DNA from: an uncultured Thermoplasmatales archaeon
Lineage (GTDB): Archaea; Thermoplasmatota; E2; DHVEG-1
DNA: 64,000 nucleotides
Direction of reading: 5' to 3'
NCBI GenBank assembly: GCA_964597365.1
Contig: CAZQXW010000003.1
Coordinates: forward strand, 15,139-79,138
Positions 1 through 61,961 of this stretch are shown here, piece by piece. Position 1 is the first letter of the stretch, and each line of letters begins with the position of its first letter. The notes below the pieces were generated by a model, which made no database searches, had not been told where the DNA came from, and was given only the letters and a program-made list of their open reading frames with translations. A program made the translations under genes and the position numbers.

Positions 1-623
1 CGAGGCGGAGTTCCTTTTAGATAATCAAAAAACTCATAAGTTTCACTAGTAACATCAAATACAGGACCACCAAGCGTTTTGTTGATCAACTTAGAAATTA
101 CTTTTGCAATAGGTCCTTTGCTTCCATACTCACTAGGTTTCTGAAATCGTTGAAAACCATCAATAATTCCATCTTCCAAAAATATCCTTAACAGGTGTAA
201 AAATTGGATTTTAAACATGCCCATAAGAATTGAGTGACTTCCGTTAATATATATTGTCTCTTTGCCTTCTTGCTCTATCTTAGTACTTGCGTTTTCATCG
301 TTATAAACAAGTAAAGTTACAAAATTATCGATCCTAAATGGAAGGAATCTATCATACTGCGGAGTTATAATAGGAACGTTTAGTCTAAAAAGCCTTAGTG
401 GAGCAAGTAAGAATAATCCTTTACCTTTTGTACTTATTTTAAGAAGACCTGTTTCCCAGTGGACTTCATCACTCTCGTTTTCCAGAGATTCTGTAAATAT
501 TTCGTCTGTTTTTGTTGGGTTTTCAATTTTAAGCATTGTACTAGCATTTACAGCACTGGAAAAAAAGGATACTGTCAATAGTATAGTTGTACAAAGCAAA
601 ACAAAGATTTTTTTATTTTTCAT
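1..623 (-). CDS. Secreted hypothetical protein (partial; continues beyond the window start)
   Basis: Reverse strand ATG at 621-623 gives MKNKKIFVLLCTTILLTVSFFSSAVNAST..., a clear N-terminal signal peptide, and the frame stays open to position 1. The start lies in the last 11 nt of the upstream giant gene (AAATGAAAAATAA overlap). It is absent from the ORF track because it runs off the window edge. Confidence 0.45.
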   Translation of the reverse strand, partial: MKNKKIFVLLCTTILLTVSFFSSAVNASTMLKIENPTKTDEIFTESLENESDEVHWETGLLKISTKGKGLFLLAPLRLFRLNVPIITPQYDRFLPFRIDNFVTLLVYNDENASTKIEQEGKETIYINGSHSILMGMFKIQFLHLLRIFLEDGIIDGFQRFQKPSEYGSKGPIAKVISKLINKTLGGPVFDVTSETYEFFDYLKGTPP

Positions 624-3600
624 TTTTTTCCCTCCTTTTTAGTAAATAAACAAGAGAAACTATAACAATTGAAATAATAGCAATAAATACTATTAGGTAA
701 TTTTCTAAAAACGAAATAGGTTGTTTTTCATTTGGATAATTTGTTGCTCCAAAAGGACTATGACCTTTAAGATCAAAAGAACTTTCACTTCCCACAGGAC
801 CTACTTCTTCTTTCTGCCAATAATTATCATTACTGTAGTTTGTACCAGGGACAAAAACTCTTAAATCAGGATCGCCAAAATAAATTGTACTCTGCGATGT
901 ATCCCACCATAATTGAGATTCTGAAGTATCGCCATTTTTACCTCCTAAATAAAGGTTACCAACATGACTTAAGCCTTTAGTATAAGCTTCCCCAACTGTA
1001 TCTCCAAGGACGATGTCTCGTGGTATTGATTGTTGCCAAACAGCGCCATATTGGGAGGTGCCCCAAGGGTTTTGTATCTGGAAAACAGTCCCATGTCTAA
1101 TCAGCATCAAATGTAAGTATGTATTGGCTGTATCACACATTGTTGTAACAAATCCAGCAGAATGAAGATTTCCTAAGTTTTCCTCAATTTCTGCTGATGA
1201 ATATCTGTAGTACTGAAATTTAGAATGAGCAATACTACCAACAACTCCATCTTTTAGGTTTTCGACATCAAATGGGTCGAAAAATGGAGTGATTTTATTT
1301 AAAACTGTTTTAACAGGTTTGTAACTTAAAACCCAATCAAGCGATGGAAATGAAAGCGGAGTTTTTATACCAGTATAAGGCAATGTCCCCGCAATATCTG
1401 CAGACATAGTATCAGGTTCCTCAGTAGAACCATAATACCATTCATATCCTCTCCAAGGGTTTTTTTCTTCAAATACACTTGCAGTAGGTTCTAGGCTATC
1501 AAAAACTTTCCTTAAGTTAAAACTTAGTCTGACTAATAACGAACCTATAAGAGTATTCCTTAAATCTAATATTTTTTTATGACCAAGAGCTATTTTTGCT
1601 GAATAAAAATTACGTTCTTCAAAACCTTTTTCAGGGTTCCAAAATAAAGAAGAGCCGCCATTCATGGTAGAACCATGAGAGCTGTGCACCCACAGAATAA
1701 CTCCTTTGTTAAGATTTTCTACAACCGAATCCATATTTGTTGAAAAAGCACATGAATAACCACCTTTTCTCAAATAAAATGGAACAATACTTGACTCATC
1801 CATATCTGGATAAATATTTATAGCCTCTCCTGATGTTTTATCCATTTCAGTTGGATCGATGTTCTCACCCGTGGCATAAAAACCTGGAATGAGGCCATCA
1901 GCACCAACATATTTTTCATCATAATATTTGCTTGCTCTTTCGTTAAATCTATGCTGATACGAAACAAATGAACATAGAACAGGGAATTCAAACTCTTGCA
2001 TCTCTTCTTTTCTTACCTTTTCATAATTATTCATGTTTATTTCCACAAGAGACTGTTTTGTACTTAAAAAACCCAACAAACTCGCGCGTTTTACGCTAGT
2101 ATCTCTCTTACTTACACTGCCGTTTTCCAGCTCAATTAAACCAGTCAAAGCAGGATTTTGAAAGACCAAAGAAGGATAAAACATATTTCTTGAAATAGAA
2201 TATGCTATGTCAACAGGCGAGCCGCAGAATCTTCCTGAATTAGCAACACCGGGGAAAATACGATCCCAACTAACCCCTATATCAAATTGATCTGCAACCG
2301 TTATTATCGTCTCTTTACCTTCTCTGTCAAAACCCAACTCTTGTAAAGCCTCATATATTTTTTCTCCAGTGCTTATCATCTCAGATGATGATGGATAACG
2401 GTGTTCTCGGTCATCTGAAAAGTGTTTCCAAAATTCATTATGATAAACAGCAGATGAAGAAAGTTTTGGATGATTTTCAAGTATTATCGGGGCCGATCCA
2501 TGGTGTGCTGCAATATATGCAGCAGGTCCAATAAAAAGTGCTCCTTTCTTCTCACCATCAACTTTCAAAGTTTCATGATTCCAATAACTCCAAGGATTAG
2601 TAGTAGTAAAAATTACATCGTTTTGATCTGTTTTGCTTTGTATATATTTATAGATTTGTTCTACTGTCTTATATTCTGATTTTATTTTTGCTATTTCTTT
2701 TATTTTGTTAAAAGTAGAATCTGAAAGATGATTTCCAATATTTACAAGATAAATATTTTCAATACCTAGCTTATATAATACATCTGAAGTTTCTTTTGAT
2801 AAATCGTCCTGTGACGTATAAATGAGGGGAGAGTTTAAAGTACTTGCAAGAATAGCCCCTTCAGTTGCAGAAGTAATAGAATCTAAAAAGCTGACAGAAT
2901 CATATTTATCCCAGCTATATTTTATCTGAAAATTTACAGGTTCTTTAACATCATTCATAGAGAATATGGATATATAATAGCTAGTTTCCGGCGGACATTC
3001 CCCTAGGGAATCCAATGATATGATCTTTGACGTTTGACCCTCATCACAGGCAGCTGTATATATTACCTCCCCGGCTGGCCCAATTATAGAAAAACCAAGA
3101 GCTGCATCGGATGATTGCCATTCTAACTCAAATTGTGCATTTTTACACTCAGACCTGGGCTTTTCTGGTATTTCAATAGTTTCTATACAAGGGTATAAAG
3201 AAAGGTCAATGTTATATGTAAGAGTTTTTGAGAAAAGTGCTTTTAAAGGCTGACCTTGAGTTTTTAGTTTTTCAGTTGGCAAGTCAACTATTCCAACTTT
3301 CCAAGAACCTGGTTTATAAACATATGAATGGGTATATTTATGTCCAAGGGGACCAAAACCAAAGTCAGAAGAAGATTCGCTTTGAATCCATTCGTTATTT
3401 TTATTGTAATACAACTGGACAAGTGGGTCTCCAGAGGGATCTGCGGCTGAAAACATGCCTGCTTTAGACATAAATATTGCATCCCACCATAAATCTGCTT
3501 TAATGTATCCATATCCTTGTGGTATATTAAATTCTTCAAATTGAGGCTTTAAATAGTTTGTTCTATCTATCCTTATTGTATCTAGATACTTGATATCTTT

Positions 3601-4197
3601 TGCTGTAAAAATTCCATCAATTGTTCCAGAAATTGTTTCTTTTTCTCTTTCGTGGCCTATATCATCTATAACGGCAATAACTGCATCATCTGAATAGGAC
3701 CATTCACTTAAAGCAATCTCATTTGCAATTGTACAGGGGTCTGTTGAGTCTATAAAGGTATATTGATCTGCAACCCATCTCTTAATATCCTTTTCGTCTG
3801 TATTAATTGCCACAATTTTATCAAATTCACCGTCGCATGATTCTTGCCAATCAGTCATGAAATAGTTAAGACCTTCACTTGAATCTAAAACAGGATCTTC
3901 AGAGTAACGTTCATCTTGATAAAACAAAAGAGGGTTTGAAAATAAAACGCCGCTTTCTTTAAAAACGGTTGTGGGTACTGCTGCTAAATAGGCATAGTCA
4001 TCCAGATAACTTTCATCATCAAAACCGACAAAAGTTGTTTTCTTCAAAGGGATAACAGGTTTATATGATGGGCAACTGCCAATTCCCGATATATTTGTAC
4101 CTGCAGATACATTTAAAACATTAAAACAGCACAATATAAATAAGAAAACTATCGAAAGAACAAATAATTTGTTTTTAGACACAGACCTGTTGTTCAT
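613..4197 (-). CDS. Giant secreted cell-surface protein (1194 aa) with possible clan-CD (gingipain/clostripain-like) caspase-fold peptidase domain; N-terminal signal peptide, C-terminal TM anchor plus basic tail
   Basis: ATG start verified. N-terminus MNNRSVSKNKLFVLSIVFLFILCCFNVLNVSAG is a signal peptide. C-terminus ...YLIVFIAIISIVIVSLVYLLKRREKNEK is a TM anchor with basic tail. His-Gly motif VILWVHSSHGSTMNGG lies upstream of Cys motif FVTTMCDTANTY, ordered as the catalytic dyad in clan CD peptidases. The domain call is tentative. Confidence 0.8.
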   Translation of the reverse strand: MNNRSVSKNKLFVLSIVFLFILCCFNVLNVSAGTNISGIGSCPSYKPVIPLKKTTFVGFDDESYLDDYAYLAAVPTTVFKESGVLFSNPLLFYQDERYSEDPVLDSSEGLNYFMTDWQESCDGEFDKIVAINTDEKDIKRWVADQYTFIDSTDPCTIANEIALSEWSYSDDAVIAVIDDIGHEREKETISGTIDGIFTAKDIKYLDTIRIDRTNYLKPQFEEFNIPQGYGYIKADLWWDAIFMSKAGMFSAADPSGDPLVQLYYNKNNEWIQSESSSDFGFGPLGHKYTHSYVYKPGSWKVGIVDLPTEKLKTQGQPLKALFSKTLTYNIDLSLYPCIETIEIPEKPRSECKNAQFELEWQSSDAALGFSIIGPAGEVIYTAACDEGQTSKIISLDSLGECPPETSYYISIFSMNDVKEPVNFQIKYSWDKYDSVSFLDSITSATEGAILASTLNSPLIYTSQDDLSKETSDVLYKLGIENIYLVNIGNHLSDSTFNKIKEIAKIKSEYKTVEQIYKYIQSKTDQNDVIFTTTNPWSYWNHETLKVDGEKKGALFIGPAAYIAAHHGSAPIILENHPKLSSSAVYHNEFWKHFSDDREHRYPSSSEMISTGEKIYEALQELGFDREGKETIITVADQFDIGVSWDRIFPGVANSGRFCGSPVDIAYSISRNMFYPSLVFQNPALTGLIELENGSVSKRDTSVKRASLLGFLSTKQSLVEINMNNYEKVRKEEMQEFEFPVLCSFVSYQHRFNERASKYYDEKYVGADGLIPGFYATGENIDPTEMDKTSGEAINIYPDMDESSIVPFYLRKGGYSCAFSTNMDSVVENLNKGVILWVHSSHGSTMNGGSSLFWNPEKGFEERNFYSAKIALGHKKILDLRNTLIGSLLVRLSFNLRKVFDSLEPTASVFEEKNPWRGYEWYYGSTEEPDTMSADIAGTLPYTGIKTPLSFPSLDWVLSYKPVKTVLNKITPFFDPFDVENLKDGVVGSIAHSKFQYYRYSSAEIEENLGNLHSAGFVTTMCDTANTYLHLMLIRHGTVFQIQNPWGTSQYGAVWQQSIPRDIVLGDTVGEAYTKGLSHVGNLYLGGKNGDTSESQLWWDTSQSTIYFGDPDLRVFVPGTNYSNDNYWQKEEVGPVGSESSFDLKGHSPFGATNYPNEKQPISFLENYLIVFIAIISIVIVSLVYLLKRREKNEK

Positions 4198-5542: not shown

Positions 5543-6226
5543 TTATTGTGCCGGTGGATTACTTGGTGGTTGTGGCATACTAGCCATTGGTATTACTTCT
5601 TTTTCTTTCAAAAACAGCATTATCCCTGCAATAAGGGAGAATATTGCTGCCAATATCATCAAATACCAGGCATAGGATGGACCAGCTGACACTTCCACAC
5701 CACTTTCACTTAAGCTATACCAAAATCCTATTTCCCCTGTTTGAGAACCATAAGAAGCCGCTTGTGACTCTACAAAGCTTGAAAAACCGGTCATAAAAAC
5801 TATAACAGCAAGCAACGAAAAAACAGATACTGCCAATGCTAAAATTCTACCAATTTTCTGGAATTCTTCTTTATACATGCTTAAAACTATAAAAACTAAA
5901 GCAACTATAGCAGAAATAAGAGTAATAATTGTAAGAATAAGAGTATTACTAATAGCATCCAAGAAACTTGTATCCATACCTGCTGTTTCGTATTGTTCTT
6001 TAAGCTCTGATAGATCAATAGTTTGCTTCAAGGAAGCTCCCCCCATACCAGACGAAGATCCTTCCATCTTTGTTAAAAAAACATCTGCATTAGATTCACT
6101 TTCCATACTCATAAAACCCGTACCAGAATATTTCGAATGCACAGAGTACCAAGATCCAACAAGACCAACTGTGATAAACACAAGCGTCAAAACAGTAAAA
6201 ATAGCACTTATCATTTTTTTGTTCAT
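5543..6226 (-). CDS. Hypothetical membrane protein (about 4 TM), Pro-rich C-terminal tail
   Basis: Hydrophobic segments ISAIFTVLTLVFITVGLVG, LILTIITLISAIVALVFIVL, LALAVSVFSLLAVIVFMTGF and WYLMILAAIFSLIAGIMLFL. The ORF-track start is TTG, so I use the ATG three codons downstream (MNKKMISAIF). Confidence 0.55.
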   Translation of the reverse strand: MNKKMISAIFTVLTLVFITVGLVGSWYSVHSKYSGTGFMSMESESNADVFLTKMEGSSSGMGGASLKQTIDLSELKEQYETAGMDTSFLDAISNTLILTIITLISAIVALVFIVLSMYKEEFQKIGRILALAVSVFSLLAVIVFMTGFSSFVESQAASYGSQTGEIGFWYSLSESGVEVSAGPSYAWYLMILAAIFSLIAGIMLFLKEKEVIPMASMPQPPSNPPAQ

Positions 6227-6283
6227 ATGATACAAATAATGTAAGTAATATAAAAAAACGTCGAGAAAATAATCATGAAATAA

Positions 6284-6700
6284 TCATATATCAAAGAGAA
6301 CCTGCACATGACATGGCTTTTTCTTCCTAACTTCAAGTATATGGTAAGTTACAGCTTTAATTTCAGCACCTGCTTTATGCTTAGAAAAATCAAATTTTTC
6401 ACCAAAAACAGTTGCAGTAAGCTTCTTATTATGATTTTTAAGATTTACCTTAAAAAACCCAAAGACTAGGTTTTTTGCACTATTAAGGTACAAAAGTTCT
6501 GAAAGCCAATCAACAAGCAATTGCTCAGAATCATCTGCTTCAAGTTCTATATTATATTGACCTACACTTTCAATTTTAGATTTATCTGTAATAATATCAA
6601 ACATCGCATGGGCTGCATTTTCAAAACATTCTGAAAGACTATTCCCATTTGCTTTAACACCAACATCTGCGGTGTGATCGATTAACTCGTACTTTTGCAT
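6284..6700 (-). CDS. Archease (chaperone/activator of RtcB-type tRNA ligase)
   Basis: MQKYELIDHTADVGVKANG...LEVRKK fits the archease family, including the N-terminal HTAD motif and overall length. The ORF-track start at 6721 is TTG. The ATG at 6698-6700 gives the canonical archease N-terminus. Confidence 0.85.
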   Translation of the reverse strand: MQKYELIDHTADVGVKANGNSLSECFENAAHAMFDIITDKSKIESVGQYNIELEADDSEQLLVDWLSELLYLNSAKNLVFGFFKVNLKNHNKKLTATVFGEKFDFSKHKAGAEIKAVTYHILEVRKKKPCHVQVLFDI

Positions 6701-6816
6701 ATAAATCGCCTTTAATGACAAAGATGTATAAAAGCTTAGATGTTAAAAACAATTTAAAGAGATAAACGATTATTTATTTAAATATATAATTTATACACTA
6801 TAGCAGGAAGATAGGG

Positions 6817-7218
6817 ATGAAGGAGAAAATACTAATAGTAGATGATGAACCAGATGTACTTGACTCTCTTAAAATGGTTTTAGAAGCACAGAATTATGAT
6901 GTGGATATCGCAAGTAACGGTGCAGAATGTTTAGAAAAGCTTGAGAGCGGTTTTAAAGGGATAATACTGCTAGATCTCATGATGCCTGTAATGGATGGAT
7001 GGGATACAATAAAACAAATAATTGAAAAAGGTTACATGAAAGACGTTGCAATAGAGATAATAAGTGCTTTTGGTACAAGAGAGAATAAAAGAATGGGTAC
7101 ACTTGAGCCTTACATATATGACTACCTTTCAAAACCTCTTGACATAAAAGAACTTGTTGAAAGTGTCAAAAAATGTAATGCATATCTTTTTGCAAAAGAT
7201 AAGGAAAAAAGTATTTAG
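6817..7218 (+). CDS. Single-domain response regulator (CheY-like receiver)
   Basis: ILIVDDEPDV...ILLDLMMPVMDGWDTIKQI...IEIISAFGT...YDYLSKP is the canonical REC signature with phospho-acceptor Asp and the T/K residues. ATG verified. Confidence 0.85.
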   Translation: MKEKILIVDDEPDVLDSLKMVLEAQNYDVDIASNGAECLEKLESGFKGIILLDLMMPVMDGWDTIKQIIEKGYMKDVAIEIISAFGTRENKRMGTLEPYIYDYLSKPLDIKELVESVKKCNAYLFAKDKEKSI

Positions 7219-7496
7219 AATTCTAAATAACTAAGACTTCTTAACTGCTGCAAGAATAAAAACAATCTCTGATCAATTTCTTCTTCGTCAGGAAATTCTT
7301 TTTCTACAAGATGAAGTATTTCTTCAACTGTTTTTAAACCGTCGCAGTTCTGCCATACAATACTTCCCAGCTTGTCAAGATTGGCTGTAAAACAGTTATC
7401 TTTTTTTATAACTTTACAAAAAGATTTACCGAAGTCTGTTTTAAACTTCGGCACTTTAATTTCAACTAAACCATCGTCTTTTAACTCCCATTTCAT
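7215..7496 (-). CDS. PqqD-family protein (RiPP-recognition-element-like small peptide-binding protein)
   Basis: ...FTANLDKLGSIVWQNCDGLKTVEEILHLVEKEFPDEEEIDQRLFLFLQQLRSL fits the PqqD/RRE consensus (W..lDG..tv.eI....e.y.vd.e....d...fl..L...gll). The ORF-track start at 7583 is TTG and would overlap the OPT gene. I prefer the ATG at 7494-7496 (MKWELKDDGLVEI..., 93 aa). Confidence 0.55.
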   Translation of the reverse strand: MKWELKDDGLVEIKVPKFKTDFGKSFCKVIKKDNCFTANLDKLGSIVWQNCDGLKTVEEILHLVEKEFPDEEEIDQRLFLFLQQLRSLSYLEF

Positions 7497-7566
7497 ATCA
7501 GCCCTTTTAGGCCGATATGTTAGGAATTCTTCAACTGTTGGAAGTGTTGGTGTCTGCTTCTCTGGT

Positions 7567-9612
7567 TTATTCTTTTTTAGCAAATATCTCCCTCAGTGGG
7601 ATATAAGCCAGCAGCATTGCAATGAATAACCAGACCAAGATGGCTGGTAGTATCGGTGGATATGTGAATATCGAAAGATCTATTCCACCGATAATTAAGA
7701 ATGCAACTACGACACCCATGAGTGCCTCACCGGCTATGAGCCCCGCGGTGAGAAGTAAACCTGTTCTTATAATCTTTTCCTTTGGTTTAACATCAGTCTG
7801 TTTAATCGCAAGCTCCCAATCAGAAATTTCTTCTTCCTTGGCACTTCCATATTTCTTCTCTATAGCTTTATTTGTGAAATGTCTTACAATTCCGCCAGCA
7901 AAAATAGGTATGCTAAGTGTGAAAGGCAGATAAATTCCTATTGCAACTGGAAGTACGGGTAAGTCTATGAGTATTAATACAAATGCAAGGACTGCACCTG
8001 CAAGAACAAATGGCCAAACCATTCCGCCTCCAAGAACACCTTTTACAATTCCTGCCATTAAAAATGACTGAGGTGCTGGAAGGTTTGTGCTTCCTATATG
8101 ATATGCCTGATCCAGTGCTTGAACAACAAGTGCAAGAATTGGTGCTGCTGCAAGAACGCCTATTATCTCTGCTAATTGCTGATTTTTAGGCGTAGCTCCA
8201 ATCATTTGACCACAAGTCATAGATTGCAGCACATCTCCAGAAATTGCTGCAGCACAACAAATGACTGCTGCAATAAGAATTGCAACGCCGTATGCTCCAA
8301 CGTCTCCTGAAAGACCAAATCCAAGTAAAATAAGTGATGTTATTAGTAGTACTGACACAGTTACTCCTGAGATAGGATTGTTGCTGCTACCTAGAAGTCC
8401 TGCCATGTATCCCGCAATAGCACTTGCGATAAAAGCAAAAAGTATTGCAAATACAGCCATTATTCCTGATATTGCCCATTGGCTTGATATATAACCATAT
8501 AATATGAACACGGGTATCGTAAGAGCACCAATTGCAAGGAAAACAAATTTAAAGTTAAGATCTTGGTCGGTACGTTTTTTAGCAGATACTTCTCCACCTT
8601 TAAGACCTACTACTGCCTCACGTATTCCTTCTGCAAGGTTTGATCTAAGTTTGAATATTGTATAAAGACCGCCTACAACCATCGCACCAACTCCAATGTA
8701 TCTTATGTAGTCCCCCCATATTTGGAAGAAACCCCATATCTGAGATCCGAGTTCAAGGTTACCTGCGCCAAGTCCCATCACATCCTTTACTACTTCAGGA
8801 TTTGAAACATCAGGTGTTGGAAGGCCTGTTGCAAGTGCGATAAGAGGTGCTAAGATAACCCATCCAATTAGACCCCCTACTAAAATAAAAGATGCTATTT
8901 TTGGACCTATAATCCATCCTACACCAAGCAGTGCAGGGCTTGTTGCAGTACCTCCATATAATACTGCGTCTTTTTCTCCACCGCCGATGTTATATTTACC
9001 GATGTTTATTAGGCCATGTACTTGACCTGCGAAAGTTTTAACTCCTACTTGTCCAAATTTAAAAAGTGCTGCTGCGACAACACCAATCATAAGCCAAATT
9101 CCGCTTACACCACTTCCGCCTTTTGAGTCTGTTGCTTTTGCTCCACCAACTGTTGTAGTAAGTACTGCAGCAACTGCAACACCTTCAGGGAAGGGTAAAT
9201 CAGTTTTTGTTATAAGCGCACGTCTGAGAGGTATCATCCACAAAACGCCTAAAATACCACCCAATAGTGCAATGATAGTAGTCTCTAAATATTGAATCTC
9301 TGACCAAGTTCCAAGAAGAACAAGTGCAGGGATTGTAAATATTACTCCTGCTGCAAGAGCTTCTCCTGCGGCAGCTCCCATCATTCCTATATTTACTTCG
9401 AGAATTGTTCCTTTAAATGGCTTTAGAAGTGCGAAAGCCATAACTGCCCCAGGAATAACAGCTGAGACTGTCATACCTGCGTAAAGCCCAAGATATGCAT
9501 TTGCAGATCCAAGGATTACAGCAAGTATTGCTCCTACTAAAACTGCTTTTAGTGTAAGTTCAGGTATTTTCTTTGATTCGGGTATAAATGATTTAAAATT
9601 TTCACGTGACAT
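7567..9612 (-). CDS. OPT-family oligopeptide transporter
   Basis: 681-aa polytopic membrane protein with 14 or more hydrophobic segments and OPT-like blocks (GLYAGMTVSAVIPGAVM, NPISGVTVSVLLITSLI). ATG verified. Confidence 0.85.
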   Translation of the reverse strand: MSRENFKSFIPESKKIPELTLKAVLVGAILAVILGSANAYLGLYAGMTVSAVIPGAVMAFALLKPFKGTILEVNIGMMGAAAGEALAAGVIFTIPALVLLGTWSEIQYLETTIIALLGGILGVLWMIPLRRALITKTDLPFPEGVAVAAVLTTTVGGAKATDSKGGSGVSGIWLMIGVVAAALFKFGQVGVKTFAGQVHGLINIGKYNIGGGEKDAVLYGGTATSPALLGVGWIIGPKIASFILVGGLIGWVILAPLIALATGLPTPDVSNPEVVKDVMGLGAGNLELGSQIWGFFQIWGDYIRYIGVGAMVVGGLYTIFKLRSNLAEGIREAVVGLKGGEVSAKKRTDQDLNFKFVFLAIGALTIPVFILYGYISSQWAISGIMAVFAILFAFIASAIAGYMAGLLGSSNNPISGVTVSVLLITSLILLGFGLSGDVGAYGVAILIAAVICCAAAISGDVLQSMTCGQMIGATPKNQQLAEIIGVLAAAPILALVVQALDQAYHIGSTNLPAPQSFLMAGIVKGVLGGGMVWPFVLAGAVLAFVLILIDLPVLPVAIGIYLPFTLSIPIFAGGIVRHFTNKAIEKKYGSAKEEEISDWELAIKQTDVKPKEKIIRTGLLLTAGLIAGEALMGVVVAFLIIGGIDLSIFTYPPILPAILVWLFIAMLLAYIPLREIFAKKE

Positions 9613-17255: not shown

Positions 17256-17801
17256 ATGACAACAATAAAAATTGAAAACATTGTTGCGTATGCAAAAATT
17301 TCTGAGTTACTTGACATAGAACTTATAGCAGAAAAGATACCTAACTCAAGCTACAACCCAGATGAATACAATGGCGTATCAATAAAATTCGATGATTTAA
17401 AGATAGCAGTGATAGTACTTTCGAACGGAAAAGTAGTATGCACAGGTGCAAAAAAATTACAAGACGCTGAATCAACACTTAAAAAAGTAATAAAACAAAT
17501 AAAAGACATCGGATTTGAACTGCAAAAAGGCTACAAGATAGAAATAGAAAATGTCATCGCATCAACCGATCTTAAAAAAGAACTGCATCTAGCAAGCATA
17601 GCAAATGCATTAGTACTACAAAATGTTAAATATGAACCAGAAGAATTTCCTGGCTTGATATACAAAATGGAAGAACTTTGCACCATGGTTCTCCTATTTA
17701 GCTCAGGTAAAATAGTCTGTACAGGTGCAAAAAGTATAGATGATGCTAAAAAGTCAATGAAGACGATGGACGAAAAACTAGCATCAATAGGAGTCTTATA
17801 A
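17256..17801 (+). CDS. tbp: TATA-box binding protein (TBP), copy 1
   Basis: 181 aa with two internal TBP repeats (IENIVAYAKISELLDIELIA...VCTGAKKL and IENVIASTDLKKELHLASIA...VCTGAKSI). Confidence 0.95.
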   Translation: MTTIKIENIVAYAKISELLDIELIAEKIPNSSYNPDEYNGVSIKFDDLKIAVIVLSNGKVVCTGAKKLQDAESTLKKVIKQIKDIGFELQKGYKIEIENVIASTDLKKELHLASIANALVLQNVKYEPEEFPGLIYKMEELCTMVLLFSSGKIVCTGAKSIDDAKKSMKTMDEKLASIGVL

Positions 17802-17826: not shown

Positions 17827-18378
17827 ATGCCAGAAGTAATAGTAGAAAATATTGTTGCATCTACATCTTTTGCAGATAAGCTAGATTTAGATGTAATAGC
17901 TCAATCACTTGAGGAAGCAGAGTACGAACCAGAACAATTTCCAGGTTTAGTCTACAGGCTAAGCGATCCAAAGACTGCAACCCTTCTTTTCAGAAGTGGA
18001 AAAGCAAATTGTACTGGTGCAAAAAACGTTGAAGATGTAAAAAGAACAGTAGACATTATTGCAGAAAAACTCAGAAAACTTAACGTAGAAGTCTACAAAG
18101 ACTTAAAAATTGTTATACAAAACATTGTAGCAATAAGTGACCTTGGAACAGAATTAAACTTAAATGAGGTTGCAATGGGTCTTGGTCTGGAAAACGTTGA
18201 ATATGAACCAGAACAATTCCCTGGACTTGTATACAGAATCCGCGAGCCAAAAGTTGCAATGCTGCTGTTTGGTTCAGGAAAAATAGTATGCACCGGCGCT
18301 CGTCAAACAGAGGATGTTTCAAAAGCAGTAAAGAAACTCTCTGAAGAGCTTGACTCGCTTGATCTTATCAAAAAATAA
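17827..18378 (+). CDS. tbp: TATA-box binding protein (TBP), copy 2 (tandem paralog)
   Basis: 183 aa with two TBP repeats (IENIVASTSFADKLDLDVIA...NCTGAKNV and IQNIVAISDLGTELNLNEVA...VCTGARQT). Acidic C-terminus. Confidence 0.95.
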   Translation: MPEVIVENIVASTSFADKLDLDVIAQSLEEAEYEPEQFPGLVYRLSDPKTATLLFRSGKANCTGAKNVEDVKRTVDIIAEKLRKLNVEVYKDLKIVIQNIVAISDLGTELNLNEVAMGLGLENVEYEPEQFPGLVYRIREPKVAMLLFGSGKIVCTGARQTEDVSKAVKKLSEELDSLDLIKK

Positions 18379-21856: not shown

Positions 21857-24019
21857 TTGACAGAGGTGTCTGTAAAATTGAAAGTTGACGGAAAAATCAT
21901 TTTAATTGTGTCTTTGATACTGTTAGTTTCACCAATAGCATCGACACAAGTAACCGCAGAGATTATTGCGGGAGAAATTTACGAAAATATTGATCCTGTG
22001 TTGTATCGCAATGTAACAGTCTATGCTCCAGCTGTCGCAAGTACCAGTGAAGGTTATGTAGGAGTAATATCAACCATCACTGTTACTATACAAAACAAGG
22101 GTAGTGGACGAGTATTTGTAGATACTCTCCCACTTACACAAGTAGATATGCAGGGGTCAGCTAGACTTGCTGTAAAGGTTGCAAGTGCTCTTGTTCAGAA
22201 CGACAATAATTCAAATGTTGATCCTTCATCTTATGATTATTTCTTTGTGGTAAGAACTGATGCACCTATAATTGGAGGACCTAGTGCTGGTGCTATTATG
22301 ACTGTTGCAACAGTTGGACTGCTCATGAATAGATCTTTAGACACGCAGACAGTCATGACCGGCATGATTAATCCCGATGGTAGTATCGGTCCTGTCGGAG
22401 GTATACCTCAAAAAATCGATGCAGCGTGGAGTGTCGGGGCCAAACGTTTTCTTATACCAAATGGCCAAGGAACATATACAGAAATGGAAACTACAACTGA
22501 AACAACCAGTGGAGGGTGGGTTAAAACTGTTACAAAACCTGTTGTTAAAACAGTTGAAGACTATGTCATCGAACAAGGATATGAAATTGAAGTTTTAGAA
22601 GTAGCAGACATATATGAGGCTTTAGAAAATTATACCGGTTTTGAATATACTTTTGAAGGAGAAAATGGAGAAATAACTACTGAAAAATATTTAGAATCTA
22701 TGCATCCTCTTGCAAGCAGGCTCCTTACAAATGCTTCTGAGATGTACAGTCTTGCCCAGAGCAAATTCAATGAATCCAACATACCAAATTATTTTCCAGA
22801 TTATACTAAGGAAGATGTTTCAGTGGAGCTGGAAAATGCTAAAGATTCATTTGAAGATTCAGAAAAATGGTACGATGATGACTTGTATTATACCACTACA
22901 AGCAAATCATTTCAGTCTCTTATTCACTCAAGATTTGTAATCTATGCATGTGAATATTTTGACTCAGGAGAAGATTCTTATGATTATCTTGAAAGTTTGT
23001 TATCTAACGCTGAAACAAAATATGAAAATGCAAGTGATTTGGCAGGAAACGCCGACATAAATGGTTTTATAAGTTTACAAAGCGTTGGTGCTGCCCAGAG
23101 GAGAGCATCAGAGGCAAAGATTTATCTTGATGTTGTAAAAGAAGAAATTAATTCTTTAGGAAGCCCTTCAGCAGTCCTTAGTTTTCTTGATAAAATAGCT
23201 TTTATAGTTGAAAGGAGCAATAGTGTTTATTGGTGGATTGATATAGGGACAAAATTTAATGATATTGGAGATTTTTCCAATGAAACAATAGAAAACCTCG
23301 CATTAGAATACATAGAAGAGGCACAACAGTCATTTACTTACTCAGAGGTATTAGTAGAAGAGATGGGTTCATCATATTCAGACTCTTTGAGCTATCTGAA
23401 CAACGCTGAGGTTTTAATTGAAAGCGCACGTGATGATCAAGACCAAGGTTTTCATGCATCTGCACTTTTTCAAGCACTTGAAGCAGGTGTAAAAGCAAAT
23501 CTTGCAATAGAACTGTATGGCATAAGCCCTGAAGATAAAATAGATTATTCAAAGAATGCAGCAAGCAATAACATCGCAAAAAATAGAAAACAAGGAATTG
23601 AACCAATACTTGCCGTTAGTTACTACGAGTTTGCCGAGAGCCTAAATGAAGAAGAGTCATATGATTCTGCATTGGTATACTACAAGTACAGTGGTATGAT
23701 AGCAGGTGCCCTTAGTTTTACAAATGTATCCATAGGATCGTCATCATCCAAGTATATAGGCGTGCCTGAATATAATCCTCCACAAAGCAGTGTGAATATA
23801 TTCGAATACTTGAGTACAATTTCATTCATAGTCTTTATGCTAATAAGCCTAATTGCAGGACTTGGAATTGGTTTGATAATTGCAGGTTTATTTCCAAAAG
23901 AAAATAAAAAACAAAACAAAAATCAGATGTATAATAGGCAATTCTCAGGAAGAAACTATAACTACCCTGAGGATCAGACTCCGAAAAGTATTAGAGATTA
24001 TTACAGGGAAAACAAATAA
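21857..24019 (+). CDS. Membrane-anchored extracytoplasmic Lon-type (S16) serine peptidase lacking AAA+ module, with about 470-aa acidic helical extension and C-terminal TM
   Basis: Lon proteolytic-domain signature IIGGPSAGAIMTVATVGLLMNRSLDTQTVMTGMINPDGSIGPVGGIPQKIDAA, with Ser codon at 22283-22285 and Lys dyad in QKIDAA. N-terminal signal anchor IILIVSLILLVSPIAS. C-terminal TM ISFIVFMLISLIAGLGIGLIIAGLF. There is no in-frame ATG before the signal peptide; candidate starts are TTG 21857, GTG 21866 or TTG 21878 (the last follows GAGGTG). Confidence 0.8.
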   Translation: MTEVSVKLKVDGKIILIVSLILLVSPIASTQVTAEIIAGEIYENIDPVLYRNVTVYAPAVASTSEGYVGVISTITVTIQNKGSGRVFVDTLPLTQVDMQGSARLAVKVASALVQNDNNSNVDPSSYDYFFVVRTDAPIIGGPSAGAIMTVATVGLLMNRSLDTQTVMTGMINPDGSIGPVGGIPQKIDAAWSVGAKRFLIPNGQGTYTEMETTTETTSGGWVKTVTKPVVKTVEDYVIEQGYEIEVLEVADIYEALENYTGFEYTFEGENGEITTEKYLESMHPLASRLLTNASEMYSLAQSKFNESNIPNYFPDYTKEDVSVELENAKDSFEDSEKWYDDDLYYTTTSKSFQSLIHSRFVIYACEYFDSGEDSYDYLESLLSNAETKYENASDLAGNADINGFISLQSVGAAQRRASEAKIYLDVVKEEINSLGSPSAVLSFLDKIAFIVERSNSVYWWIDIGTKFNDIGDFSNETIENLALEYIEEAQQSFTYSEVLVEEMGSSYSDSLSYLNNAEVLIESARDDQDQGFHASALFQALEAGVKANLAIELYGISPEDKIDYSKNAASNNIAKNRKQGIEPILAVSYYEFAESLNEEESYDSALVYYKYSGMIAGALSFTNVSIGSSSSKYIGVPEYNPPQSSVNIFEYLSTISFIVFMLISLIAGLGIGLIIAGLFPKENKKQNKNQMYNRQFSGRNYNYPEDQTPKSIRDYYRENK

Positions 24020-25083: not shown

Positions 25084-25133
25084 TTTTTAATACTTAATTT
25101 TTGTTTAATCTTGCTTACAAGGAAGTAAAAAAT

Positions 25134-25772
25134 ATGCTAAAAATAAGATGGCACGGGCATGCCTGTTGGGAGGTTACAAACGAAAAAACAATTGTAACCG
25201 ACCCACATGATGGTAAATCAATAGGAATACCTGAGCCAAATGTACACGCAGATATCATTCTCGTCTCGCATGACCATTATGACCACAATAGTGTAAAATC
25301 AGTCGAAAAGGAAGGATCCAAAGTAATCAAGGATGAGAGGAAAAGAAATGTTTTTGACATAGAAATCAAAGGATTTGAGTCCTTTCATGATGAAGCAGGC
25401 GGTACAAAAAGAGGAAAAAATATAATATACAAATTCAACACAGGAGACATTGTATTCTGCCATCTTGGTGATTTAGGTCATGACCTTGACGAGGGATTAG
25501 TGGAAAGGCTTGGTAAAATTGATGTTTTGTTTATACCTATAGGTGGAACTTTTACAGTTGACGATAAAAAAGCATGGGATATAATTAGAAAAATAGAACC
25601 AAAAATAGTTATTCCTATGCATTACAAAGTAGGTGGCCTTAGTCTGCCGATTGCAGGCATTGATGCTTTTCTTGAGCAGAATCCTTACAAAGTTTTACAT
25701 GTAGGAAATGAAATAGAAATAGATAAGGAAGAGTTACCGGAAGAGCCTGAAGTTTGGACTTTTGCCTTGTAA
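25134..25772 (+). CDS. MBL-fold metal-dependent hydrolase (UPF0173 family)
   Basis: MLKIRWHGHACWEV...ILVSHDHYDHN. The ORF-track start at 25101 is TTG. The ATG at 25134 follows GGAAG and gives the canonical family N-terminus. Confidence 0.85.
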   Translation: MLKIRWHGHACWEVTNEKTIVTDPHDGKSIGIPEPNVHADIILVSHDHYDHNSVKSVEKEGSKVIKDERKRNVFDIEIKGFESFHDEAGGTKRGKNIIYKFNTGDIVFCHLGDLGHDLDEGLVERLGKIDVLFIPIGGTFTVDDKKAWDIIRKIEPKIVIPMHYKVGGLSLPIAGIDAFLEQNPYKVLHVGNEIEIDKEELPEEPEVWTFAL

Positions 25773-26618
25773 TTAATTTTTGTATTCAACTAAAGGTATA
25801 TCTCCTGCACATCTATCGTACATATATGGTACCTGCGGACCGATACCTGTTTTAAAAGGGAATTGTTTGAAGAAGGAGAAAATAAAAGTTGGTACTCTTG
25901 CGTATCTAAATGCTTCTTCGGCTGTAACTATATTGTCGTTATTGAGATCTGCGACGCCTTTGAATCCTTGCAGAAGGAAATATGTAAAAATTCCATTATC
26001 TAAGTTTTTATCCCCGTCAACAGGACATAAAAGATATTTTCCACTTGCAGCAAGCACCACTCTATTTTTTTGACGGAGTTTTAGCATTCTACCAGAGTAG
26101 CAAGAATCCAATATAACTACCATTTTGCCATATGCTAATGAATCTAGCCACGAGTCCAATTCTTTGTCGGATATATCCTCATCTTCTCCAAAACGCGGTT
26201 CTGAGCTATTGTATGAAAAGATATATGCATTGCCGTAATTTATTTTGTTAATTGGCATTTTCCAGCCATGACCTGAGTAATAAAATAAAACAATATCATT
26301 TTCGTCAGTTTTATTTTTTAACCAATCAGTTACTGCTGATTTAATTGAATTCTTAGATGCGTTCTCGTTTATAAGCAGTTTAATGTTTTCTTCATCCCAG
26401 TTTTCTTTTGAAATGAGCATGTCATACATATCTTGTGCATCTTCATCAATACATACTGTGTCATTATAACTAAGGTTTCCTTCAAATCTTTCTACAGCTA
26501 TTATAACTGCATAATAGTTTACATCATTCGATAAAGTTTCTGATTTAACAGATATGTTTGTTATGCTGCAAAATATAAAAACTAAAGATAATGCCAAAGC
26601 AATTCTTTTCTTATTCAT
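25773..26618 (-). CDS. Secreted metacaspase-like (peptidase C14 / clan CD) cysteine peptidase, copy 1
   Basis: Signal peptide MNKKRIALALSLVFIFCSITNISVKSE. His motif FYYSGHGW (His codon revcomp at 26268-26270). Cys motif VILDSCYSG. These give the His-Cys dyad order and spacing of metacaspases/orthocaspases. Confidence 0.8.
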   Translation of the reverse strand: MNKKRIALALSLVFIFCSITNISVKSETLSNDVNYYAVIIAVERFEGNLSYNDTVCIDEDAQDMYDMLISKENWDEENIKLLINENASKNSIKSAVTDWLKNKTDENDIVLFYYSGHGWKMPINKINYGNAYIFSYNSSEPRFGEDEDISDKELDSWLDSLAYGKMVVILDSCYSGRMLKLRQKNRVVLAASGKYLLCPVDGDKNLDNGIFTYFLLQGFKGVADLNNDNIVTAEEAFRYARVPTFIFSFFKQFPFKTGIGPQVPYMYDRCAGDIPLVEYKN

Positions 26619-26633
26619 ATCAAATCCTCTAAA

Positions 26634-27527
26634 TCAAACTTTAACAAGCGGTATATCGCCAACATGTCTGTCATACAAGTAAGGTATCTGAGGGCCAACA
26701 AAATGTTTACCTCTAAAAGTATCCCATACATATGGAAAATGATAGAACGTAGAATGCCAAATAACAGGAATGCGGAGATAATAATAAGCTTCTTTTACAG
26801 TAACCCACCCATCGTTATTGATATCCGCAACACCATCAAGTGCTTGTCTGAAGAAAAAACCAAAAATTGAGTCTTCAAGATAAACACTCCAATTGCATGG
26901 ACAGAATATATACTTGCCACCAGCTGCAAGGATTATTCTACCAGATTGCCTTAAACCAAGCCATCTTCCTGAATAACAATTTTCAAGGATTACAGCAATA
27001 TTTTTTGAATCAAGTTCATCAAGCCAACTATCATATTCTTTATCTGTTATCTTATCGGGCCCATAACCTACACCTGATGAGTTATGTGTAAAGATGTATG
27101 CATTGCCGTACATACGGTTTTTAGGTTTTGTTTTCCAACCATGGCCTGCGTGATATATAACAACAATATCATTTTCATTTTCTTTATCTGCAAGCCAAAC
27201 AGTAATTGCATCATGGATGTTTTCTTTTGTAGCATTCTCGTTTAATAAAAATTTAATGTTTTCTTCTTTCCAATTATCGCTTTGTAACAAAGTTTCATAG
27301 AAAGCAGTAGCAGTTTCATCAAGATATTCTTGAGTAGGCGTATCAAATCCCTTATATTCTTCTATGCCGACGATTACGGCATAATATTCAGTTTCATTTT
27401 CATCAGATGTTGTGATAAGATTTTCTTCTGGTTTTTCTGTTGTTTGAATAGTTATTGCATTTGTCTGTGCTGTAAAAAATAGCGTAATTAAAAATATTGA
27501 CAAGCAAAAATGTATATATTTTTTCAT
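26634..27527 (-). CDS. Secreted metacaspase-like (peptidase C14 / clan CD) cysteine peptidase, copy 2 (tandem paralog)
   Basis: Signal peptide MKKYIHFCLSIFLITLFFTAQTNA. IYHAGHGWK and VILENCYSG motifs. It is collinear with copy 1, but the DNA is diverged, so this is not a recent duplication. Confidence 0.8.
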   Translation of the reverse strand: MKKYIHFCLSIFLITLFFTAQTNAITIQTTEKPEENLITTSDENETEYYAVIVGIEEYKGFDTPTQEYLDETATAFYETLLQSDNWKEENIKFLLNENATKENIHDAITVWLADKENENDIVVIYHAGHGWKTKPKNRMYGNAYIFTHNSSGVGYGPDKITDKEYDSWLDELDSKNIAVILENCYSGRWLGLRQSGRIILAAGGKYIFCPCNWSVYLEDSIFGFFFRQALDGVADINNDGWVTVKEAYYYLRIPVIWHSTFYHFPYVWDTFRGKHFVGPQIPYLYDRHVGDIPLVKV

Positions 27528-27646
27528 TTTTAATCACATTAGCTACATGTAAGACATAATTAAATATATTTGTGTCAATAATATAACAAGGAACATCAAA
27601 TAATATCAAAAAAGAGCAGAGGATGTTATTATAGAAACATATCAAA

Positions 27647-60454: not shown

Positions 60455-60587
60455 ATTTTTTTCCTCCAAATATAAGCAATCCGGCGATAAAGGAACACCT
60501 ATATATAATCTCCTAATGAAAAGTTCGACAAAAAGTGTAATTTGCTTCTAAACAATCTAGAAATAAAATAGAGAAAAAATAAAGGTT

Positions 60588-61961
<1,374 letters not shown>

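Follow-up and report, generated by a model that had tools for sequence, protein, structure and literature searches.

The name orthocaspase is used for prokaryotic p20 homologs without a sequence-recognisable p10, and the archaeal orthocaspases listed include seven proteins with an 'EF-hand motif' (Klemencic et al. 2019, PMC6426788). Thermoprofundales (MBG-D) are among the most widespread archaea of marine sediments and are thought to remineralise buried protein via secreted peptidases. Zhou et al. (2019, ISME J, PMC6461988) have described this lineage as secreting numerous peptidases for nutritional purposes, have tabulated predicted extracellular C14B peptidases in five of eight Thermoprofundales MAGs (Table S3) and have reported C14B transcripts. 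Sequence analysis, structures and biochemistry of these peptidases, an EF-hand loop and a tandem arrangement do not feature in their study, which gives per-genome counts and class expression. In the literature searched, no biochemical study of an exported-type archaeal caspase homolog was found.

The window, which is the whole stretch of 64,000 nucleotides analysed, carries a tandem pair of genes for predicted exported C14 (caspase-family) peptidases on the minus strand, on which all features given below with coordinates also lie. Gene B, the upstream member of the pair (26634..27527), encodes a protein of 297 aa, and gene A, the downstream member (25773..26618), one of 281 aa, in agreement with the coordinates of a first-pass annotation of this DNA. 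A and B are paralogs that share 46% identity from end to end (E 7e-89). B is 100% identical to a protein (P0062) that is present on several metagenome contigs, and the copy number varies from 1 to 2. The B–A intergenic junction (26619..26633) is 15 nt long, reads TTTAGAGGATTTGAT and contains a Shine–Dalgarno-like GAGGA, suggesting that A and B are co-transcribed as a two-gene operon. The 119-nt AT-rich stretch upstream of B (27528..27646), with a TATA-like ATATATTTAA about 35–45 nt before the ATG of B, is a candidate promoter region. The CTP synthase encoded in the window is 84% identical to that of Thermoplasmata archaeon M9B1D and 81% identical to that of SG8-52-1, which places the organism near the MAGs of Thermoprofundales (MBG-D). 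The first-pass annotation considered exported enzymes of this type to be unusual in an archaeon, which is overstated in view of the C14B peptidases tabulated for Thermoprofundales. The identification of A and B is correct, and because such enzymes have already been listed for the lineage, it adds little as genome annotation.

A and B are confirmed as caspase-family (C14, clan CD) cysteine peptidases. The Pfam model Peptidase_C14 (PF00656) matches A with 41.3 bits (E 1.9e-10) and B with 27.7 bits (E 2.7e-6), both above the curated gathering cut-off of 21.4 bits. The same model is already annotated on most of their relatives, for which the NCBI name is "caspase family protein". In the PDB, phmmer and profile searches found metacaspases only, with the dyad motifs aligned. 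A was modelled with AlphaFold (pLDDT 89.5, pTM 0.86), and all 50 PDB matches that Foldseek listed for the model belong to clan CD (best E 3.9e-9) and include GSU0716, Yca1, Candida metacaspase, MALT1, caspases and legumain, ruling out a papain or transglutaminase fold for A. Pfam for both proteins and the predicted fold of A thus agree with the caspase-fold, clan CD assignment that the first-pass annotation had made from sequence motifs. These motifs, YSGHGW and DSCYSG in A and HAGHGW and ENCYSG in B, are present. His117 (codon 26268..26270) and Cys173 (codon 26100..26102) of A align with the His of metacaspase YSGHG and the Cys of metacaspase DSCHSG, respectively, and His129 (codon 27141..27143) and Cys184 (codon 26976..26978) of B occupy the same alignment columns. 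His117 and Cys173 correspond column for column to the catalytic residues of Arabidopsis metacaspase-4 and are also aligned with those of Yca1. Both are positionally conserved: His117 is kept in 39 of 40 aligned relatives and Cys173 in all 40, and S-G directly follows the catalytic Cys in 39 of 40. In the model of A, His117 comes after strand 109–115 and Cys173, 56 residues further on, after strand 165–171, so that the two residues lie at the C-terminal ends of consecutive strands of the sheet. The model suggests that A and B are single-domain proteins with a complete caspase–hemoglobinase fold, whose C-terminal half is present in modelled A. The architecture of a signal peptide followed by a bare caspase domain recurs among the relatives.

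Within clan CD, A and B are better called orthocaspase-type than metacaspase, because in sequence alignments the p20 half alone aligns with metacaspases and about one of the four calcium-site Asp residues of metacaspases is kept. A p10 domain was not found by sequence: the profile alignments to all solved metacaspases end at about profile position 190, just past Cys, and no PDB sequence relatives of the C-terminal half were found. In place of a Pro/Gln-rich or zinc-finger prodomain, the N-terminus has a signal peptide and a short polar linker. The four-Asp Ca2+ site in the p20 of TbMCA2 (D173, D189, D190 and D220) may be only partly reflected here. In an HMM alignment that is approximate in this loop, D151 alone (40/40) matches the 'DD' pair, the N137 sequon stands where metacaspases have 'P-x-D', and residue 7 after Cys is not acidic. 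Both proteins are archaeal, have an intact His–Cys dyad and show no p10 alignment, as orthocaspases do. Legumain (C13) has Arg-His in its pocket at the position after strand 1. The residues at this position in the A/B family are acidic (D-D/E), Pfam C13 matches A with 21.3 bits, below its cut-off of 22.8, and B has no match, ruling out a legumain identity.

The acidic cluster D58-E59-D60 of A (26439..26447), at the start of helix 1, is a candidate S1-pocket acid at the C-x-N-D position of metacaspases. Residue 58 is Asp in 37 of 40 relatives and position 59 is D/E in 39 of 40, and they are aligned to metacaspase 'ND'. All four S1 positions of metacaspases are represented in A. The acids at the metacaspase S1 position are D58-E59-D60 together with D171 in A, and D-E together with E182 in B, leading to the prediction that both enzymes cleave after Arg or Lys rather than Asp or Asn. 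Conservation of the S1 acids is uneven, with D/E at position 171 in 31 of 40 relatives and G/S in the other nine, and S115 is variable; specificity may therefore differ among family members. A second cysteine of A, Cys198 (26025..26027), is invariant in 40 of 40 relatives. It lies between strand 186–190 and helix 210–222, in the L3-equivalent loop of the substrate groove, which is the part of the domain modelled with the lowest confidence (a pLDDT block of about 70).

The C-terminal half of the domain contains a 12-residue segment that fits the canonical EF-hand loop pattern D-x-[DNS]-x-[DNS]-G-x-[ILV]-x-x-x-E, tested with the requirement of a helix on each side. In A, the loop DLNNDNIVTAEE comprises residues 224–235 (D224–E235; 25914..25949), and in B the loop DINNDGWVTVKE comprises residues 235–246 (26790..26825) in the same alignment columns. 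In the model of A, the loop is flanked by helices 210–222 and 233–252, with a short strand at loop positions 7–9, and these helices are probably α4 and α5 of the caspase fold. Loop positions 1, 3, 5 and 12 (D1, N3, D5 and E12) and V/I8 are conserved in all 40 relatives and G6 in 36 of them. The Pfam EF-hand model has no match to A or B at E ≤ 1, and no solved structure sharing the EF-loop half by sequence was found. An EF-type loop is present in relatives from Saprospiraceae and in 79 of the 150 best cluster representatives, and so the loop is not an archaeal novelty. The first-pass annotation makes no mention of this loop. Sequence and model together suggest that the loop most likely binds Ca2+. 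A more tentative idea is that it acts as a calcium switch, by which the exported protease would be kept off in the low-calcium cytoplasm and turned on outside, unlike the four-Asp control of metacaspases. A 'G-x-IPL' motif is conserved at the C-terminus of the A/B family, and there is the possibility that B and A pair as a heterodimer via the edge strand of this motif.

The N-termini of A and B have the form of Sec signal peptides as judged by an n-h-c pattern heuristic, the n-region being basic, the hydrophobic core 15–17 residues long and the c-region made up of small residues. According to the –3/–1 rule, the signal peptide of B (MKKYIHFCLSIFLITLFFTAQTNA, residues 1–24; 27456..27527) is likely cleaved after T-N-A, and that of A (MNKKRIALALSLVFIFCSITNISVKS, residues 1–26; 26541..26618) after V-K-S. 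In the model of A, the N-terminal segment forms a separate helix (3–19) followed by a low-confidence linker. The 12-residue hydrophobicity of the N-termini is 2.96 and 2.72 for the pair and 2.5–3.4 for other proteins of the window whose N-termini are strongly hydrophobic, and the remaining ORFs of the window score at most 2.1 save for a small two-TM protein at 2.30. An N-terminus shaped like an export signal and followed by a polar/acidic linker is found in essentially all 40 aligned relatives without conservation of its sequence. Similarly, the bare relatives (240–340 aa) among the 150 best representatives all have a hydrophobic N-terminus (32/32). N-X-S/T sequons have a density of 1.39 per 100 aa, where 0.64 would be expected, and two sites are conserved. 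A and B would thus be Sec-exported with cleavage of the signal, and the proposal that each protein is a signal peptide followed by a bare caspase domain is upheld, the n-h-c form being kept across the family. Lipoprotein anchoring is rejected, because a signal-region Cys is not a constant feature of the family.

A surface protein of 1194 aa encoded at 613..4197, with CWB2-like repeats and a C-terminal membrane helix, had been included with the pair in a clan-CD theme. The H-G...C arrangement behind this proposal is real: His841-Gly842 (1672..1677) and Cys1021 (1135..1137) are invariant in 39 homologs of a family of more than 300 members, 180 residues apart compared with 56 in A. A relation of this protein to clan CD is only a possibility. 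The model (pLDDT 79.4) has a strand-HG and a strand-C with clan-CD-like local topology, Foldseek found no significant fold match for it, and the protein has no Pfam, NCBIfam or PDB sequence match. Peptidase_C25 (gingipain) touches five of the 39 homologs below threshold. Homology to the C14 pair was not detected, hhalign showing no profile similarity (probability <3%).

The pair lies in conserved synteny with a tRNA-splicing endonuclease and other housekeeping genes at 8–9 loci, which rules out a mobile or island origin, and no tRNA genes were found in the 64,000-nt window. As context for the proposed lifestyle, the window encodes an OPT oligopeptide transporter, an SNF amino-acid symporter, a pair of Glu/Leu/Phe/Val dehydrogenases and an oxidoreductase of IOR type. 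Our best explanation, to which we assign a probability of roughly 0.6, is that B and A form an operon of Sec-exported single-domain C14 endopeptidases that bind Ca2+ and digest detrital protein. The two genes would be co-expressed, each giving rise to a clan-CD cysteine endopeptidase of family C14 (orthocaspase or C14B-like). Removal of the signal peptide would leave an enzyme of about 29–32 kDa with a predicted pI of about 4.6–4.8 and a complete caspase–hemoglobinase fold carrying the dyad His117/Cys173 in A or His129/Cys184 in B. The acidic S1 cluster may direct cleavage after Arg or Lys, and Ca2+ bound by the EF-hand loop between the two C-terminal helices may stabilise the enzyme or switch it on only in the calcium-rich outside medium. 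Detrital protein would then be broken down outside the cell, and the peptides would be imported and fermented by a Thermoprofundales-like sediment archaeon. Such a nutritional function is most likely, although the genes beside the pair, housekeeping genes whose synteny is conserved, provide no functional link to protein scavenging.

The evidence for export, fold and dyad applies equally to exported processing or maturation enzymes, which would trim or transpeptidate specific surface proteins, such as S-layer proteins or proteins like that of 1194 aa, rather than digest protein in bulk. Narrow specificity is typical of clan-CD enzymes, some of which act in this way (PorU sortase, GPI8 and legumain-type ligases), and the conserved position among housekeeping genes at 8–9 loci would suit a constitutive function in the cell envelope. 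However, no conserved candidate substrate gene adjoins the pair, no sorting-signal partner was found, the copy number varies from 1 to 2, and the secretion of numerous nutritional peptidases is documented for the lineage (PMC6461988), making a processing role unlikely. Digestion could also take place at the cell surface if the N-terminal hydrophobic segment were an uncleaved signal anchor tethering the proteases to the membrane on its outer side. In several relatives, the N-terminus carries 20–29 consecutive uncharged residues, and a single N-terminal TM helix and a signal peptide could not be distinguished in 46 prokaryotic metacaspase-only proteins (Asplund-Samuelsson et al., PMC3501461). 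The strictly hydrophobic cores of A and B, at about 14–15 residues, are nevertheless too short for a typical TM helix, small residues at –3/–1 (AxA, SxS, TNA) stand right behind the core in most members, and a polar linker of 10–30 residues follows it, so that a membrane anchor is rather doubtful.

A function in cell death, defence or conflict has been proposed for many cytoplasmic bacterial caspase homologs (EACC1-associated, PADLOC 'caspase'). For the p20 part of the pair there is a match to PADLOC's generic 'caspase' model (E 4e-11 and 7e-9), and caspase_w_EACC1 (NF047832) is the best NCBIfam match. These are domain-level matches only, the scores for NF047832 being 66.8 and 42.6 bits against a cut-off of 140, and no defence partner genes were found in the neighbourhood of the pair. 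An identity as an EACC1-associated or defence caspase is thereby rejected, and with proteins that appear to be exported and genes set in housekeeping synteny rather than an island, a role in conflict is highly improbable. A small single-domain C14 enzyme that is probably Arg/Lys-specific and Ca-dependent would be a secretome member easy to express and characterise. The EF-hand loop, if functional, would offer a new handle on the regulation of prokaryotic caspase homologs, and the switch, if true, could apply to very many uncharacterised ones, as about half of the closest 150 representatives have the loop.

A and B resemble the C14B entries of Thermoprofundales (PMC6461988) in lineage, MEROPS-level family and predicted signal peptide, a resemblance at class level; other exported peptidases of clan CD (C25, C11 and C13) also abound in the genomes of that study. 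The best PDB sequence matches are type I metacaspases (Yca1 4f6o, TbMCA2 4afv, C. glabrata 7qp0/7qp1) and Arabidopsis metacaspase-4 (6w8s). A shares with metacaspases the dyad motifs YSGHG and DSC(H/Y)SG, the S1-lining Cys, Asp, Ser and Asp, kept as C56, D60, S115 and D171, and the fold, with TM values of 0.54–0.60 for the model. Unlike metacaspases, A and B have a signal peptide in place of the N-terminal prodomain, a p10 half that is unalignable by sequence, and an EF-hand loop as the predicted Ca2+ site, D151 alone of the four-Asp site seeming to be kept by alignment. With orthocaspases such as Microcystis MaOC1 they share the prokaryotic origin, the His–Cys dyad, the missing sequence p10 and a candidate acidic S1 region from which a preference for Arg/Lys is predicted. 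The characterised orthocaspases are cytoplasmic and mostly multi-domain, whereas A and B consist of a signal peptide and a bare domain. For this domain, the model of A predicts a full caspase fold, with a C-terminal half equivalent to p10. The top structural match of A is GSU0716 of Geobacter sulfurreducens (PDB 3bij; E 3.9e-9, TM 0.56–0.59), an uncharacterised bacterial caspase homolog that resembles A in size and likewise has a single domain; the alignment has 282 columns over a 262-residue chain. GSU0716 is only 15% identical to A, the sequence likeness stays within the p20 part, and the C-terminal half with the EF loop has no match by sequence. The nearest non-archaeal relatives are caspase-domain proteins of Saprospiraceae/Lewinellaceae (Bacteroidota), 25–32% identical. 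Unlike A and B, these are 500–680 aa long with a region of about 300 aa N-terminal of the caspase domain, but they share the dyad, and many also have an EF-type loop at the same position.

Two C14 caspase-family genes, the only ones in the window, lie in tandem on the minus strand: the upstream gene B (26634-27527, minus strand; 297 aa) and the downstream gene A (25773-26618, minus strand; 281 aa), both at the positions given by the first-pass annotation. Pairwise comparison of the two proteins gives 46% identity across their full length (E 7e-89). All of the His-Gly and Cys motifs quoted earlier are present with verified codons, the catalytic dyad being His117 in YSGHGW and Cys173 in DSCYSG in A, and His129 in HAGHGW and Cys184 in ENCYSG in B. 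The B-A spacer is 15 nt long (TTTAGAGGATTTGAT) and contains a Shine-Dalgarno-like GAGGA, and the 119 nt ahead of B are AT-rich and include a TATA-like ATATATTTAA, suggesting that the pair forms a bicistronic operon. The stop codons of A and of an MBL-fold gene on the plus strand (25101-25772) abut at 25772/25773 with zero spacer, and converging transcripts would have no space for separate terminators.

Both proteins exceed the gathering score of Pfam Peptidase_C14 (A 41.3 bits, B 27.7 bits; gathering score 21.4). For Pfam Peptidase_C13, the legumain family, A remains under threshold and B gives no match, and the best NCBIfam model, caspase_w_EACC1, is far under its cut-off of 140 bits (A 66.8, B 42.6). 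In a PDB sequence search with A, the significant and near-significant matches are metacaspases, the top one being Arabidopsis metacaspase-4 (E 8.7e-7 with A alone, 1.7e-11 with the family profile), and a few weak, unrelated chains also appear at E < 1. These alignments pair YSGHG with the metacaspase YSGHG and DSCYSG of A with DSCHSG. A confident AlphaFold2 model of A, built from an alignment of 40 sequences (mean pLDDT 89.5, pTM 0.86), places strand 109-115 before His117 and strand 165-171 before Cys173, which is the clan-CD arrangement. All 50 Foldseek matches listed against the PDB are clan-CD enzymes, with no other fold among them; they include GSU0716 (3bij, E 3.9e-9), Yca1, a Candida metacaspase, MALT1, caspases-3/7/9/11, Arabidopsis metacaspases 4 and 9, TbMCA2 and legumain. 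In the 40-sequence alignment, numbered here as in A, Cys173 is invariant (40/40), and His117 and the Ser-Gly following the Cys are each kept in 39/40. The identification of the pair as metacaspase-like C14 peptidases of clan CD is thus correct in family, fold and dyad.

Among 5.8 billion proteins searched, about 72 are close relatives (45-57% identity, 280-315 aa). Metagenomes are the source of every one, and the handful bearing a name are annotated as 'caspase family protein [Candidatus Thermoplasmatota archaeon]'. Every aligned member begins with a basic n-region, a hydrophobic core and a small-residue c-region, from which a polar or acidic linker leads to the first strand, and this segment shows no sequence conservation across the 40 members. 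It thus behaves as an export signal, and the N-terminal signal peptides proposed for A and B are probably genuine. The N-terminal hydrophobicity of A and B lies in the range of the other strongly hydrophobic N-termini in the window. N-X-S/T sequons occur in the family at 1.39 per 100 aa, compared with 0.64 expected from composition, and N86 (33/40) and N137 (31/40) are conserved sites, which would fit an extracellular, N-glycosylated archaeal protein.

An acidic cluster occupies the metacaspase S1-Asp position (D58 in 37/40; D/E at position 59 in 39/40), and D171, two residues ahead of Cys173, is D/E in 31/40. All four metacaspase S1-pocket positions are kept in A as C56, D60, S115 and D171. 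The Asn-specific pocket of legumain carries Arg-His, and this pair is absent from the family alignment. The acids at the S1 position therefore lead to the prediction that A and B cleave after Arg or Lys. A second Cys, Cys198 of A (26025-26027, minus strand), is invariant (40/40) and is equivalent to Cys209 of B (26901-26903, minus strand). The loop that holds it is the expected floor of the substrate groove, and B-type paralogs have an additional Cys two residues past Cys209 (FCPCNWS). Disulfide formation, metal binding and redox control are possible roles.

The first-pass annotation missed an EF-hand loop that lies within the caspase domain, in its C-terminal half. The canonical 12-residue pattern is found at residues 224-235 of A (DLNNDNIVTAEE; 25914-25949, minus strand) and 235-246 of B (DINNDGWVTVKE; 26790-26825, minus strand). 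Loop positions 1, 3, 5 and 12 and Val/Ile8 are kept in 40/40 and Gly6 in 36/40. In the model of A, helices 210-222 and 233-252 flank the loop, and loop positions 7-9 form a short strand; this modelled helix-loop-helix has textbook EF-hand geometry, and the order of secondary structures suggests that its helices correspond to caspase-fold α4 and α5. No solved structure shares the C-terminal half bearing the loop in the PDB sequence search. Of the four-Asp Ca2+ site of metacaspases, only D151 (40/40) has a counterpart in the family by approximate alignment. Any Ca2+ regulation would probably act through the EF-hand loop, the single feature that would repay experiment. Klemencic et al. attributed an 'EF-hand motif' to 7 archaeal orthocaspases with no further analysis (PMC6426788). 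An archaeal invention of the loop is ruled out, since it is found at the same position in many Saprospiraceae relatives (e.g., DADKDKIVTIEE) and in 79 of the best 150 representatives obtained when 1.84 billion proteins were searched exhaustively.

In a GTDB survey of one genome per species, relatives with at least 42% identity occur only in Thermoplasmatota MAGs, and the next tier (25-32%) is bacterial, mainly Saprospiraceae/Lewinellaceae with some Dehalococcoidales. The bacterial relatives are 500-680 aa long with a C-terminal caspase domain, whereas three other Thermoplasmatales proteins of about 800 aa carry it N-terminally. In these three MAG loci (L017, L018 and L019), the caspase gene lies at about 5840-8358 and encodes an N-terminal signal, a caspase domain (31-35% identity) retaining the EF-hand loop and, C-terminal to that domain, about 500 further residues. 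Two other species (loci L005 and L008) also have B followed by A in tandem; a single copy is present at most loci, and some single copies are clearly B-like. Saprospiraceae loci (L021, L026, L033, L034, L045, L049, L057 and others) often have two caspase-domain genes on the same strand about 1.5-2 kb apart, suggesting that duplication of this gene type recurs independently in bacteria. The order 2-hydroxyacid dehydrogenase, C14 gene(s), convergent MBL-fold gene, tRNA-splicing endonuclease and Lon_C-like 720-aa protein is conserved in 8-9 loci, indicating that the C14 gene is chromosomal and vertically inherited in the lineage and ruling out an island origin. A PADLOC scan gave a generic caspase-domain match only and no partner genes. 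The 720-aa protein (21857-24019, plus strand), three genes from the C14 pair and a conserved neighbour in 8 archaeal loci, combines a Lon_C (S16) proteolytic domain (residues ~81-203, E 6.7e-10) with a hydrophobic N-terminus, a long unannotated middle and a hydrophobic C-terminal segment but has no ATPase domain, and may be a Lon-like protease that is exported or bound to the membrane.

The 1194-aa surface protein (613-4197, minus strand) had been proposed to share the clan-CD theme. It gives no Pfam, NCBIfam or PDB sequence match, and its family comprises more than 300 archaeal surface proteins of about 1150 aa without a Pfam domain, two of which are encoded in tandem in the MBG-D single-cell genome SCGC AB-539-N05 (MBGDN05_00116 and MBGDN05_00117). 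It has CWB2-like repeats together with a membrane helix at the C-terminus (residues 1163-1193), and the sole match of the family profile is a CWB2-type repeat of Cwp6. His841-Gly842 and Cys1021, 180 residues apart, are invariant in 39 homologs, and in a usable model (pLDDT 79.4) the His-Gly follows strand 835-839 and the Cys closes strand 1015-1021, a clan-CD-like local pattern. However, hhalign puts the probability of a match to the C14 family below 3%, and beta-sandwich domains dominate the Foldseek matches to the whole chain, with PorU as the one clan-CD entry (rank 25, probability 0.47). Peptidase_C25 appears sub-threshold in 5/39 homologs (best E 0.014). Clan-CD membership is therefore plausible but undemonstrated, and such a domain would be very divergent and C25-like, not a relative of the C14 pair.

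The CTP synthase of the window shares 84% identity with its counterpart in Thermoplasmata archaeon M9B1D and 81% with that in Thermoplasmatales archaeon SG8-52-1, both MBG-D/Thermoprofundales MAGs. Two adjacent Glu/Leu/Phe/Val dehydrogenase paralogs (59168-60469 and 60588-61928, minus strand) are consistent with amino-acid catabolism and, together with an OPT oligopeptide transporter, an SNF amino-acid symporter and an IOR-type 2-oxoacid:ferredoxin oxidoreductase elsewhere in the window, fit a peptide-fermenting organism. Two adjacent ORFs of ~181-183 aa with similar N-termini (…IENIVA…) at 17256-17801 and 17827-18378 (plus strand) look, on reading of their sequences, like tandem TATA-box-binding-protein paralogs. 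The best explanation of A and B is a co-transcribed pair of Sec-exported, single-domain C14 (orthocaspase-type) cysteine peptidases, and we infer export, specificity, Ca2+ dependence and physiological role alike: the enzymes would be probably Ca2+-binding and probably Arg/Lys-specific, and would help degrade extracellular protein in a Thermoprofundales-like archaeon.

Exported metacaspase-type enzymes had been considered unusual in an archaeon, but Zhou et al. (2019) reported C14B expression in the Thermoprofundales lineage and tabulated C14B ('metacaspase Yca1' type) as predicted extracellular in 5/8 MAGs, M9B1D among them, with 6-15 extracellular C25 genes also listed for each genome (Table S3; PMC6461988). 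A later paper repeats the theme of secreted gingipain and clostripain (PMC9585477), and Asplund-Samuelsson et al. (2012) had earlier pointed to a single N-terminal helix, which 'might be a signal peptide', in 46 metacaspase-only proteins of prokaryotes (PMC3501461). These published predictions place exported archaeal C14 enzymes and the clan-CD-rich secretome of the lineage already on record, and A and B would be further members of an enzyme type known for this lineage.
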